Source: Desulfarculales bacterium (GTDB lineage: Bacteria > Desulfobacterota > Desulfarculia > Desulfarculales > Desulfarculaceae). Taken from it: a DNA stretch of 64,000 bases. Below, piece by piece: positions 29,118 through 45,528 of the stretch. The stretch lies in contig JAVBVK010000003.1 in NCBI GenBank assembly GCA_031554335.1, positions 86,144 through 150,143 of the forward strand, in the 5' to 3' direction. The position numbers and the translations under genes were made by a program. Every line of letters starts with the position of its first letter. The stretch's first letter is position 1. Below the pieces are notes generated by a model that worked only from the letters and a program-made list of their open reading frames with translations, had not been told where the DNA came from and searched no databases.

Positions 29118-29168
29118 TTGGTGCCGGGGGGCGGAATTGAACCGTCGACACACGGATTTTCAGTCCGT
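29118..29168. repeat. att site: displaced 3' portion of tRNA-Phe (51-bp exact direct repeat of 45478-45528)
   Basis: Base-by-base identity of 29118-29168 with 45478-45528; the sequences diverge on both sides. Confidence 0.9.
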
Positions 29169-29361
29169 ATCCATAGATTTGTTGTAATTTATTGCAGTTA
29201 TCTATGATTGTAAAATTTGACGTAATTATTGTAAATAACACTAAATATGTTATAAGTAAATAACTGAGCGTTGCTCTATCAGGAAGGAAAAAAACAGGAA
29301 TTTTATCTAACATGGTAGGAAAAAGGTAGGATAAAATATCCGCTTTTTTGGAGTAAATAAC

Positions 29362-30561
29362 ATGGTAAAAGAGGAAGTTAGCAGCGGAAAAAGCCGGGTA
29401 AAAACTAGATATCCTGGTGTTTACCTGGAATATGGTTCTGAAAAGCGCCGCTTTTATAATAATGGCAAGGAAGATGGCTGTTTTTATATTCTTTACAATG
29501 TTGGTAGTAAGAAAAAATGGGAACGTATTGGCTGGCAGTCGGACGGTTTTACCGCTCAATTTGCCAATGGCACAAGGGCGCAACGACTTAAAGACATACG
29601 GCTTGGCAAGGTTGACGAACTGCCTTTTTATGAAAAACCAAAATGTATTACAGTTAATGCAGCATGGGCCATATATAAAGAAAAGCATCTTCCAACTATC
29701 AAGCATCCTGAAGACGACATAGCCCGCTACGACTATCATATCTATCCTGCTTTTGCCGATACTCCGCTTAATGAGATAACTACTTTGGAGCTTGAATCTT
29801 TCAAACAAAAACTGCTTCAAAAGCAAGTGGTCTCCAAAGGCAAAAATACTTACACGTCCAATCAAGGCCGAAGGTGTCTTTCTCCGGCCACTGTAAATCA
29901 TGTAATAAGTCTGTTTGGCCGTATCTATAACAGAATGATTGCTTGGAATCTCTATGACGGTAAATCTCCAGTCCCTTTTGTAAAAAAAACCAAGATGGAT
30001 AATGCCAGGGTAAGATTTCTCGGTACGGAGGAAATTGAAAACCTTCTGACAACCCTGCAAAGGCTCAGCCCAACCTGGCATGATATAGCCAAAGTCAGTC
30101 TCAATACCGGCTTGCGCTTGGGTGAAATTCTCAATTTGCGGGTAACTGATATTGATGTGACCAATGGGATCATCCATGTGCGCGATGCCAAGGCAGGCAC
30201 CCGGATGGCTTACTTTGCTGATGACTGTAAAAAGTTTTTCAGAGAACTCATTAATAAAAACAATGACCAGTTTATCTTTACCAATAAATACGGAAAACCA
30301 TTTACATCCAGAAGCGCCAGCAAAACTTTTGATAAGGCTGTAACCAGATTGGAGCTGAACAGCGGAGTGGATGATAACCGGCAAAAAGTTGTTTTCCATA
30401 CTCTACGGCATACCTTTGCTTCTCGGCACGCTATGAACGGTACGGCCATTTATGTAATTGCGGAACTTATGGGGCATTCCACATTGGAAATGACTAAGCG
30501 CTATGCCCATCTTTGCCCGGATACTAAGCGTAAAGCGGTTAACAGCATTAAATCTGTATAG
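29362..30561 (+). CDS. tyrosine-type site-specific integrase
   Basis: 'NTGLRLGEIL' (Arg), 'HTLRHTFAS' (HxxR), 'LMGHSTLEMTKRYAHL' (catalytic Tyr). Confidence 0.9.
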   Translation: MVKEEVSSGKSRVKTRYPGVYLEYGSEKRRFYNNGKEDGCFYILYNVGSKKKWERIGWQSDGFTAQFANGTRAQRLKDIRLGKVDELPFYEKPKCITVNAAWAIYKEKHLPTIKHPEDDIARYDYHIYPAFADTPLNEITTLELESFKQKLLQKQVVSKGKNTYTSNQGRRCLSPATVNHVISLFGRIYNRMIAWNLYDGKSPVPFVKKTKMDNARVRFLGTEEIENLLTTLQRLSPTWHDIAKVSLNTGLRLGEILNLRVTDIDVTNGIIHVRDAKAGTRMAYFADDCKKFFRELINKNNDQFIFTNKYGKPFTSRSASKTFDKAVTRLELNSGVDDNRQKVVFHTLRHTFASRHAMNGTAIYVIAELMGHSTLEMTKRYAHLCPDTKRKAVNSIKSV

Positions 30562-30852
30562 CTATAAATTGGGCAGGGTTTTGACTGTATGCCGTTTCAG
30601 GTAGGCCCTTACTTCTTCGATAGAGTAAAGCACCTTGGAACCAATCTTGACATAAGGCGGGCCAACGCCTCTGGAACGCTGGGTGTTGAGCGTATTTTTT
30701 TCCAGGGAGAATAGCTTGGCAATATCCTCGGCAGGAAGATATTCTTTGCGGCTCAGCCTCTCCAGTTCAATAACCGGCTGAAGCTGTTCATTGATGGCCT
30801 TGTCTATGGATTCTTTGATGTTGATAGTGTTGCCTAAATTATCTATAACCAT
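30562..30852 (-). CDS. helix-turn-helix DNA-binding protein, excisionase-like
   Basis: 'LPAEDIAKLFSLEKNTLNTQRSRGVGPPYVKIGSKVLYSIEEVRAYL' resembles MerR/AlpA-type excisionase HTH. Adjacent to the integrase. Confidence 0.6.
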   Translation of the reverse strand: MVIDNLGNTINIKESIDKAINEQLQPVIELERLSRKEYLPAEDIAKLFSLEKNTLNTQRSRGVGPPYVKIGSKVLYSIEEVRAYLKRHTVKTLPNL

Positions 30853-31253
30853 TTATGATGTCCTCTCAGATGCTGCATGTAAATAATAAAACCCTTAATT
30901 AGCCGGTTTTATTTTCAGTTATAGTTCGTTTTATGGGGTACGCAAGGGGGGGAGGAGATTATCTCCTAGCTATCACTAGGTTATTACAGGTTATTTTCAA
31001 AAATCCGCAATTATTGCCGAGTTGCCTATTTTCAATACAGAAGATAAAAACCAATTATTATTGGCGTTTATTCGAGTGGAGATTGTAAAGTAAAACTTTT
31101 TTTGAAAAAAGTGCATTTTTTTATTTAAGACGTATATTTTGAAACACTTTTTAAGCAAAAAGCGCAAAAGTTGTTAGAGATGGGTTGTTGATACAAGCTC
31201 GACTGGGTTATTTGTTGAACTGTTATAGCAGAGAGTTTGTACCCTAATTGCAC

Positions 31254-44538: not shown

Positions 44539-45351
44539 TCAGCGCATACCTGGAGACCAGTTATGTGGAAATCCAAGCTGTATGTTTGTCTTTTTTTGTG
44601 CTTCCAGATGGTCAAGGCCAGCTTGCAGATAGCTTCGCCACACTTCGCGCCAGCGTTTGCGCTTGAACTCGGTTTCTTGATCGGGAAACGGCTCGGCTGG
44701 CTTAAAAAGAGGGATAGACCAACGGTTTTTGTTTATACGATTGAGCAGGTCTTTTATGGTTTTGTTGAGGTGGGCCGCCTTGCGGCTCAGCCGATTAATG
44801 GCCCGCTTTCTTTCCCGCTCCAACATGGGGCCAAGGCCCAGCCATTCGAACAGAATTGAGGTAACTACCCGGATAGCGCGCAACCCAATATAGTTGCCCT
44901 CGGCGTTGATTTTGCGGGGTTGCTTCACTTCCATAAACCCGGCCATTTTCAGGTCACGGATGGCGCGTTCACAACGGCGCTGGTTAAGGCCGCTGGTCTG
45001 CACAATTTTAGCCATAGACACGTCAACAAAGCCGCCTGCCATAGTGGGAGTACCCAAGCTCATAGTGGCCAGTTCCAAATGGGTCAATACCGCTTCCAGG
45101 ACAATCTGATGGGCTTCGCGTCTTTCACTTCTGGTCTGGCGGCGGTGGTGGGTACAAAGCGGCTTACACTTTTCCGGATGGGCGTACCAGGATTTAGCCC
45201 GCTCAGCAGCCAATGAAAGAATGCGGGGCAAGCCACCCTTGCCCTTGCGGATGGGGTTGCGGGGTGTCAGCCGGGGTTGGCGGGGATTATGGCCAACGCG
45301 GTTGCCACTTTTTTTTAGAGTTATATGGCGCTGGCCGGTATTTTTATTCAT
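44539..45351 (-). CDS. putative replication initiator / winged-helix DNA-binding protein
   Basis: Basic N-terminus, 'IVQTSGLNQRRCERAIRDLKMAGFMEVKQPR' wHTH-like segment, and position next to the mobilization genes. Confidence 0.45.
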   Translation of the reverse strand: MNKNTGQRHITLKKSGNRVGHNPRQPRLTPRNPIRKGKGGLPRILSLAAERAKSWYAHPEKCKPLCTHHRRQTRSERREAHQIVLEAVLTHLELATMSLGTPTMAGGFVDVSMAKIVQTSGLNQRRCERAIRDLKMAGFMEVKQPRKINAEGNYIGLRAIRVVTSILFEWLGLGPMLERERKRAINRLSRKAAHLNKTIKDLLNRINKNRWSIPLFKPAEPFPDQETEFKRKRWREVWRSYLQAGLDHLEAQKKTNIQLGFPHNWSPGMR

Positions 45352-45426
45352 GGCCGCACATTTTTATTGCTGTACTTAGCTGGAAGTTGCTGGAGTTGTG
45401 TTTTGCGGATAGGTAGGAAAAAAGTA

Positions 45427-45470
45427 GGAAAAAACAAAAACGGGTTACGCTTAAAATGGCGTAACCCGTT
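45427..45470 (-). terminator. element-encoded intrinsic terminator for tRNA-Phe
   Basis: 12-bp stem aacgggttacgc/gcgtaacccgtt. On the minus strand it is followed by TTTTTGTTTTTT and starts 9 nt after the tRNA 3' end. Confidence 0.65.
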
Positions 45471-45477
45471 GATTTTC

Positions 45478-45528
45478 TTGGTGCCGGGGGGCGGAATTGA
45501 ACCGTCGACACACGGATTTTCAGTCCGT
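45478..45528. repeat. att site within tRNA-Phe 3' half (direct repeat of 29118-29168)
   Basis: Exact 51-bp identity. Confidence 0.9.

Follow-up and report, generated by a model that had tools for sequence, protein, structure and literature searches.

The window analyzed here, a stretch of 64,000 nucleotides from a Desulfarculales bacterium (assembly GCA_031554335.1, contig JAVBVK010000003.1, positions 86,144 to 150,143), contains at 29118-45528 a segment of 16.4 kb that begins and ends in sequence of the gene for tRNA-Phe. The host genome is a metagenome-assembled genome (MAG) of 2.18 Mb in 44 contigs and 90% complete; the window lies inside its contig C12, which is 187 kb long. A first-pass annotation had described the segment as an integrative mobilizable element (IME) in tRNA-Phe that is bounded by an exact 51-bp repeat, corresponding to the 3' 50 nt of the tRNA gene plus one base, is more A+T-rich than its flanks, and has intact genes for an integrase, an excisionase (Xis)-like helix-turn-helix (HTH) protein, a relaxase, a MobC protein and a putative Rep, together with a defence cargo but no conjugation pore genes. 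With the exception of the MobC label, our analysis recovered all of these features. Those that define the element are:

29118..29168, minus strand: distal attachment (att) repeat, equal to tRNA-Phe positions 27-76 plus 1, a 3' fragment that has been displaced (repeat comparison)
29283..29336, plus strand: integrase-proximal arm, in which the 11-bp motif GTAGGAAAAAA occurs three times, always with one mismatch and twice in tandem (motif scan)
29362..30561, plus strand: tyrosine integrase, 399 amino acids (aa) (PF00589, 102.5 bits)
30562..30852, minus strand: HTH_17 excisionase-like protein, 96 aa, convergent with int (PF12728, 27.1 bits; phrog_66 'excisionase')
42314..43585, minus strand: MOBP relaxase (TraI/MobA(P) family), 423 aa (NF041893; PF03432; PF22863)
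43582..43911, minus strand: TraJ/NikA-like ribbon-helix-helix relaxosome accessory protein, 109 aa (PF21983, 60.8 bits; NF010451 TraJ)
43983..44037, minus strand: candidate origin of transfer (oriT), a nested inverted repeat ending in a putative TATCCTG/C nick, 73 nt upstream of traJ (sequence and fold)
44024..44329, minus strand: open reading frame (ORF) of 101 aa upstream of oriT, without a match in Pfam, NCBIfam or PHROGs
44539..45351, minus strand: Rep-like protein, 270 aa (homology to RepP-11A)
45413..45434, plus strand: tRNA-proximal arm, two exact tandem copies of GTAGGAAAAAA (motif scan)
45439..45470, minus strand: predicted intrinsic terminator carried by the element for the rebuilt tRNA-Phe (fold and sequence reading; related elements share the design)
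45478..45554, minus strand: proximal att repeat (45478-45528) within the intact tRNA-Phe(GAA) region (repeat comparison and ARAGORN)

The two copies of the repeat, located by repeat search and a script, are in direct orientation and identical at 51 of 51 bases; a G/C mismatch at 29117/45477 and an A/T mismatch at 29169/45529 set its limits. ARAGORN places the intact tRNA-Phe(GAA) at 45479-45554 on the minus strand, in agreement with a repeat that consists of tRNA positions 27-76 (anticodon stem-loop to CCA) and one downstream base. A search of the host genome against itself found only these two copies, and an exact match of 51 bp within 64 kb cannot have arisen by chance. The G+C content is 46.3% inside the segment (29169-45477) versus 54.6% in the glycan operon to the left and 55.0% in the near right flank, and all 15 genes are open. 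The terminator, strong and bidirectional as predicted, directly follows the rebuilt tRNA.

Integration, mobilization and replication modules

The integrase contains the motifs GLRLGE, HTLRH, GHS and RYAH (R/HxxR/H/Y), and the convergent HTH_17 protein is likely the excision directionality factor. The arrangement of int and xis is kept in four metagenomic relatives (L045, L046, L057 and L058), in which xis is 41-78% identical. In L045, the closest relative, a Gp49/HigB-like toxin and an HTH antitoxin are inserted as a pair between the two genes (2054-3230), and the alignment of its xis homologue falls into two parts, perhaps because of a frameshift. Related integrases generally lie 130-200 bp from tRNA 3' fragments. 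Relatives with 41-46% identity (tblastn/genome search) adjoin tRNA-Phe fragments in G035 and G039, two genomes of the same class, where the integrases (46% identical) start about 130 bp from a 48-nt tRNA-Phe 3' fragment in the same orientation as here; these two islands share the integrase and a weak Xis match with our element, but not its backbone. The L045 integrase (71% identical) is found beside a tRNA-Thr(CGT) fragment, and those of L046 (52%) and L057 (54%) beside fragments with a CAT anticodon (tRNA-Met-type). In each of these three cases the tRNA fragment ends in the anticodon loop.

The motif GTAGGAAAAAA has 8 matches in the window versus 1.8 expected, a number reached in none of 100 shuffles, and five of the eight fall within the two arms, at most about 170 bp from the att repeats. 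It is also kept upstream of int in L045 and L046, whereas other relatives of the integrase have 11-bp motifs of their own; in L057 (54% identical) and L058 (47%), tandem copies of GGGTAGC(A/C)A occupy the equivalent place. The arm motif thus co-varies with the integrase, which is the pattern that arm-type integrase sites would show; to judge by their sequence, the tandem 11-bp repeats of both arms likely represent such sites.

The relaxase scores 380.9 bits on NF041893 (cut-off 250) and retains motifs I-III as LAEYI (Tyr21), YHLLVSF and HQNTDNLHLH, which we take to correspond to those of RP4 TraI. Profile and motifs together place it among the MOBP relaxases of the RP4 TraI type, and its identity to TraI genes of conjugative plasmids of the IncP type is 33-35%. 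In Desulfovibrio, related relaxases have a length of about 550 aa and adjoin genes for TraG, TraF and ArdC-primase, so that suitable helpers exist in this group; a relaxase scan of genome contigs found no relative. The gene at 43582-43911, translationally coupled to the relaxase gene, is the one that had been labelled MobC. This label did not hold: Pfam assigns the protein to the NikA-like family PF21983 and to RHH_7, NCBIfam assigns it to TraJ, and Pfam MobC (PF05713) does not match it. The candidate oriT (44037-43983, minus strand) terminates in CTATCCTG|CC, which fits what we take to be the IncP-type nic consensus, YATCCTG|Y. As single-stranded DNA the inverted repeat is predicted to fold with -19.6 kcal/mol (z = -5.8). 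Pieces about 95% identical to the adjacent 101-aa ORF are present in run X2 (here and below, runs X1, X2 and X5 are k=31 (Logan) contigs, unable to bridge a repeat of 51 bp).

None of the element's ORFs matches a family of pore proteins, VirB4 or coupling proteins (Pfam, PADLOC, NCBIfam and PHROGs), and VirB4 (PF03135) and VirD4/TraG (PF02534) are absent from the whole MAG. An integrative conjugative element (ICE) would encode VirB4, a coupling protein and a mating pore, and the segment therefore does not belong in this class.

Over 195 aa the Rep-like protein shares 39% identity with RepP-11A from the Pseudomonas plasmid RP1-1 (E 1e-36), an IncP-11 initiator that is reported to have been validated with mini-replicons (preprint, bioRxiv 10.1101/2024.09.03.610885); sequence searches of Pfam, NCBIfam and PDB gave no match. 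Full-length homologues with 55-63% identity occur by the hundreds in Desulfovibrio-type metagenome contigs. In L148-L150, tRNA-Thr is followed by a terminator hairpin, two tandem copies of GGGTAGCAA and then, as the first gene, the rep homologue, and this shared layout makes the order tRNA, terminator, arm repeats, rep a family trait. Deeper inside the islands of L148-L152 are a NikA-like gene and a MOBP relaxase gene; an integrase was not seen within the 20 kb examined. The island at tRNA-Thr(CGT) represented by L148, L149 and L150 (9640-10003) is found in more than 120 gut Desulfovibrio-type contigs, and a stray 5' half of tRNA-Thr with inverted GGGTAGCAA repeats lies just upstream of the intact tRNA.

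Canonical IMEs are recognized by att repeats from site-specific integration, an integration and excision module of their own, a relaxase and/or oriT of their own, and the lack of mating-pore genes, and they excise and are mobilized in trans by a helper (Guedon et al. 2017; PMC5704250). The segment has repeats derived from the 3' end of tRNA-Phe, a PF00589 integrase whose HTH_17 neighbour is conserved beside it, a relaxase above its profile cut-off with an oriT-like hairpin ending in TATCCTG|C, and no type IV secretion system (T4SS) genes. The presence of all sequence-level features of an IME in an intact state, including the relaxosome accessory gene, supports this classification, as does the position of related integrases at tRNA 3' fragments elsewhere, and we put the probability that 29118-45528 is a canonical IME at about 0.85.

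The following course of events would account for the locus. The circular form would recombine through the tyrosine integrase with the segment of tRNA-Phe that runs from the anticodon stem-loop to the 3' end. The element would supply the new 3' part of the tRNA and its own terminator, and the former 3' part, displaced by 16.4 kb, would form the second 51-bp copy. Once the element is excised, its oriT hairpin would be nicked at TATCCTG/C by the MOBP relaxase together with the TraJ-like protein, and a co-resident conjugative element of the IncP-like (MPF-T) kind would provide the coupling protein and type IV pore through which the single strand exits; such a helper would be needed because the element and the host MAG encode neither coupling protein nor pore. 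The Rep-like protein may allow the excised circle to replicate for a time.

Cargo, regulators and older island remains

The part of the element between xis and the relaxase gene contains a putative defence operon, a pair of regulators, and a block around a DUF4417 gene:

31254..34334, minus strand: Type III restriction subunit Res, 1026 aa (PADLOC REase_III, 973 bits; PF04851, PF19778)
34331..35005, minus strand: 224-aa protein between mod and res, without a family match
34996..36870, minus strand: Type III methyltransferase Mod, 624 aa (PADLOC MTase_III, 692 bits; PF01555)
36941..39496, minus strand: SNF2-family helicase, DrmD-like, 851 aa, first gene of the operon (PF00176, PF00271)
39661..40026, plus strand: XRE repressor (PF13560, 50 bits)
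40013..40609, plus strand: ImmA-like metallopeptidase with the motif HEIAH, overlapping the XRE gene (PF06114, weak at 16 bits and below the cut-off)
40752..42192, plus strand: DUF4417 protein and two small ORFs of 118 and 138 aa (PF14386, 204 bits; phrog_940 'nuclease')

The cargo is a four-gene minus-strand operon (SNF2 helicase, Mod, the 224-aa protein and Res), and the adjacent Mod and Res identify it as a Type III restriction-modification (R-M) operon, which agrees with the defence cargo proposed earlier. The gene for the 224-aa protein, which has no match in Pfam, PADLOC, NCBIfam or PHROGs, overlaps both mod and res; with the upstream SNF2 gene this makes a four-gene operon and not a plain Type III system. 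DISARM, which would combine DrmA and DrmB (DUF1998) with DrmD or DrmC and a methylase, was considered and rejected: DrmA and DrmB are absent, and the helicase reaches only 348 bits on NF038318 (DrmD_b) against a cut-off of 950. A phage or satellite identity of the segment was rejected as well, given that PHROGs shows no structural or packaging genes.

The XRE and ImmA-like pair is capH/capP-like according to PADLOC and likely constitutes a switch. Exact pieces of int, the SNF2 gene, xre, immA and the traJ region occur in a metatranscriptome of the same study (run X5). Among them the xre piece (window 39654-39995) has the greatest assembler word depth, 4.5 versus 2.1-2.9 for the other pieces of the element; this would fit, weakly, a repressed, lysogen-like state, and the pieces may also stem from carried-over DNA.

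Outside the distal repeat lie two further features:

28753..29117, minus strand: relic of another island (E0), with a tRNA-proximal arm containing TGGAGCA-type motifs, an integrase start and the decayed 5' part of that integrase (reading and tblastn)
28584..28810, minus strand: remnant of the C-terminus of an IS256/Mutator-type transposase, by which the old integrase is truncated (PF00872, 20 bits, slightly below the cut-off)

As read from these sequence remains, the left flank (28550-29117) is not native chromosome but what is left of an older island, E0, and of an IS256 element. From 29016, the start codon of the E0 integrase, the minus strand reads MASMRKSRQQ...* and later LFAITGRDAVDFMNERQEEGVGANSIRLDLAVISRLFEVAARD*, where asterisks mark stops, and residues 101-164 of the L073 integrase align to 28947-28753 with 41.5% identity (tblastn, E 4.5e-9). 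The C-terminus of the IS256-like protein is visible in the frame-0 reading of 28584-28810. The G+C content of the relic is 46.0%. The stretch of about 105 bp immediately left of the repeat (29012-29117) shares roughly 73% identity with the DNA beyond the tRNA-Thr fragment in L045 and has no second copy in the genome or family. Its arm sequence is composed of TGGAGCA repeats, GGAGCAAAAAGTCAAATC, a terminator and TTGATTTYnT, and the hairpin at 29020-29064 is part of it. A motif scan located the same arm in L073, L074, L114 and L121, directly downstream of intact tRNA genes, and in L128, where it adjoins a tRNA fragment; in L073, L074 and L121 it runs into the start codon of an intact integrase of a different type, MA(T/S)(F/I)RKRGP(W/Y)QWEARIRK.... 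We had considered the 105 bp as the ancestral chromosomal terminator of the tRNA. They are absent downstream of tRNA-Phe in G001, the only available genome of the same genus, and what they match is the arm, together with the start of the integrase, in another type of island; this explanation was therefore dropped.

The tRNA-int layout of the relic to the left of the repeat reveals that an older island was already located at tRNA-Phe before the present element, and that this tRNA gene was struck at least twice by islands. The present element would have entered the regenerated tRNA-Phe and pushed the E0 relic outward. In G035 (C2, 429112-472227) and G017 (C1, 3317166-3339173), two successive tRNA-Phe 3' fragments of 45-48 nt follow one intact tRNA-Phe. 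These successions reflect tandem island arrays, and tRNA-Phe is thus a recurrent landing site in this class. The same MAG also encodes a second integrase of the family (G000:C23:28311-29033), in a 418-aa open frame and with 45% identity across the catalytic half, which suggests a further island there.

In the present element, the 25 bp that adjoin the tRNA, CGTAACCC[G/C]TTGATTTTCTTGGTGC, are almost identical between window 45451-45477 and L073 2868-2893. The L073 island has an unrelated integrase and uses a different tRNA; the near-identity could reflect either a common terminator design or exchanged att arms. Elements of this lineage might even change their tRNA target by capturing att sites from resident islands, a scenario that we regard as doubtful. 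The tRNA-proximal 25 bp of the element's arm, CGTAACCCGTTGATTTTCTTGGTGC, are nearly identical to the arm of the unrelated L073 integrase family, and a relic of that family abuts both the present element and its 71% relative L045. The occurrence of integrases with 52-71% identity at fragments of tRNA-Phe, tRNA-Thr and tRNA-Met-type genes, with an arm motif that co-varies, also points in this direction. If tandem accretion followed by imprecise excision brings a new core and terminator, Desulfovibrio-type islands would provide a natural series for the retargeting of tyrosine integrases.

Mobilizable element, remnant or plasmid

Several observations weigh against an IME that is complete and active. 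The MAG, 90% complete, contains neither a helper T4SS nor a coupling protein (T4CP), so that the element may currently be stranded. A close relative of the whole element was not found, the nearest relaxase and Rep homologues being 49% and 63% identical, and run X2 provided only scattered backbone pieces at 3x depth (86-100% identity), too sparse to rebuild a relative or to judge its cargo. The nic motif YATCCTGY alone is not enriched in the window (9 matches versus 7 expected), so that the oriT call rests on position and hairpin context, and neither an iteron array nor an origin of vegetative replication (oriV) was recognized near rep (43900-45480). Comparison with a relative that has an uninterrupted tRNA-Phe, as the first-pass annotation had suggested, succeeded in part: in G001 the HAD gene and tRNA-Phe are kept and the site is unoccupied, with neither element nor fragment, but the left flank is not syntenic and the DNA downstream of the tRNA is unrelated. 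The contigs of the source metagenome (run X1) break at both copies of the repeat; excision, the circle and the empty attB are events and states that we infer.

One alternative explanation would be a remnant without activity: an island that was mobile once, or an ICE reduced in size, that is now fixed in the chromosome, no longer excises or transfers, and is kept since its R-M operon is addictive or useful. The missing helper functions are compatible with this possibility. The tRNA-Thr islands of L148-L152, with their succession from rep to relaxase, appear to be without an integrase within reach and fixed across many samples, and the neighbouring E0 reveals that decay does occur at this locus. 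However, the 15 open genes, the perfect att repeats, the intact catalytic motifs of integrase and relaxase, and the exact repeats of the tRNA-proximal arm would be unexpected after long immobility. We consider the remnant unlikely; the IME may have been acquired recently and may still be excisable.

Less probable still is a mobilizable plasmid, with Rep, MOBP relaxase and oriT, that happens to encode an integrase and for which integration is an occasional, episome-like state. The homology of the Rep-like gene to a validated plasmid initiator and the IncP plasmid type of relaxase and TraJ agree with this proposal. Against it, the depth in the source metagenome is even across flanks and element (12.3 for the element versus 12.6 for the chromosome), which argues against an excess of free circles; Rep homologues of the clade typically come first among the genes of chromosomal islands linked to tRNAs, in contigs that reach 427 kb; and neither partition genes nor iterons were found. 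An assembly artefact, in which a circular element with a tRNA-like segment was mis-spliced at the shared 51 bp, is very improbable: although the De Bruijn contigs of the source run end exactly at both repeats, which leaves the graph ambiguous at k=31, the artefact would take two mis-joins independent of each other, the depth is even, 51 bp is shorter than a read and than the large k values that metagenome assemblers use, the arm of another tRNA-integrating island comes next after the displaced fragment, which is what one expects downstream of a genuine tRNA, and complete genomes such as G035 have the same architecture. The IME thus remains our preferred interpretation of the segment.

Relation to known mobile elements

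The locus provides a cleanly delimited and apparently intact IME from poorly studied, sulfate-reducer-like gut hosts that resemble Desulfovibrio, with its putative cis sites (core, arm repeats, candidate oriT and terminator) mapped at the sequence level, and it illustrates the way in which a defence operon of the Type III R-M/SNF2 kind travels. The element is well built but ordinary, and it leaves the current understanding of IMEs unchallenged.

The Bacteroides MobP IMEs NBU1 and NBU2 (PMC5704250) are similar in size (about 10-16 kb), in having a tyrosine integrase that targets the 3' end of a tRNA gene, and in combining their own MobP relaxase and oriT with dependence on a helper, as they have neither coupling protein nor pore. 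The proteins are not close, however: the element described here has an RP4-TraI-like relaxase with a TraJ-type accessory protein, a plasmid-type Rep-like gene, an XRE/ImmA switch and a Desulfovibrio-like gut host. Its att identity extends over 51 bp, from the anticodon stem to CCA. In NBU1 this identity is presumably much shorter.

With the traJ-oriT-traI region of IncP-1 plasmids (RP4) the element shares a TraI/MobA(P) relaxase, a coupled upstream traJ, and an inverted repeat with a YATCCTG/Y nic-like site. It differs in that its 423-aa relaxase is without the long C-terminal part of longer TraI-type relaxases, that the nic-like site is inside the outer hairpin stem, and that traK, traG (T4CP) and the Tra and Trb genes are missing. 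Salmonella genomic island 1 (SGI1; PMC7433901), an IME that replicates after excision, is likewise an integrated mobilizable island with its own rep beside int/xis and the need for a helper plasmid, but its target is trmE instead of a tRNA gene, its Rep shows no relationship in the comparisons made here, and it has no relaxase of its own (PMC5704250). The closest parallel in layout is provided by the tRNA-linked islands of L148-L152, in which tRNA, terminator, two tandem 11-bp arm repeats and a rep gene (58% identical) are followed by the NikA-like and MOBP relaxase genes; these islands differ from our element in their tRNA-Thr target, in the arm motif GGGTAGCAA, in their cargo, and in the presence of a gene for an SLT lytic transglycosylase.

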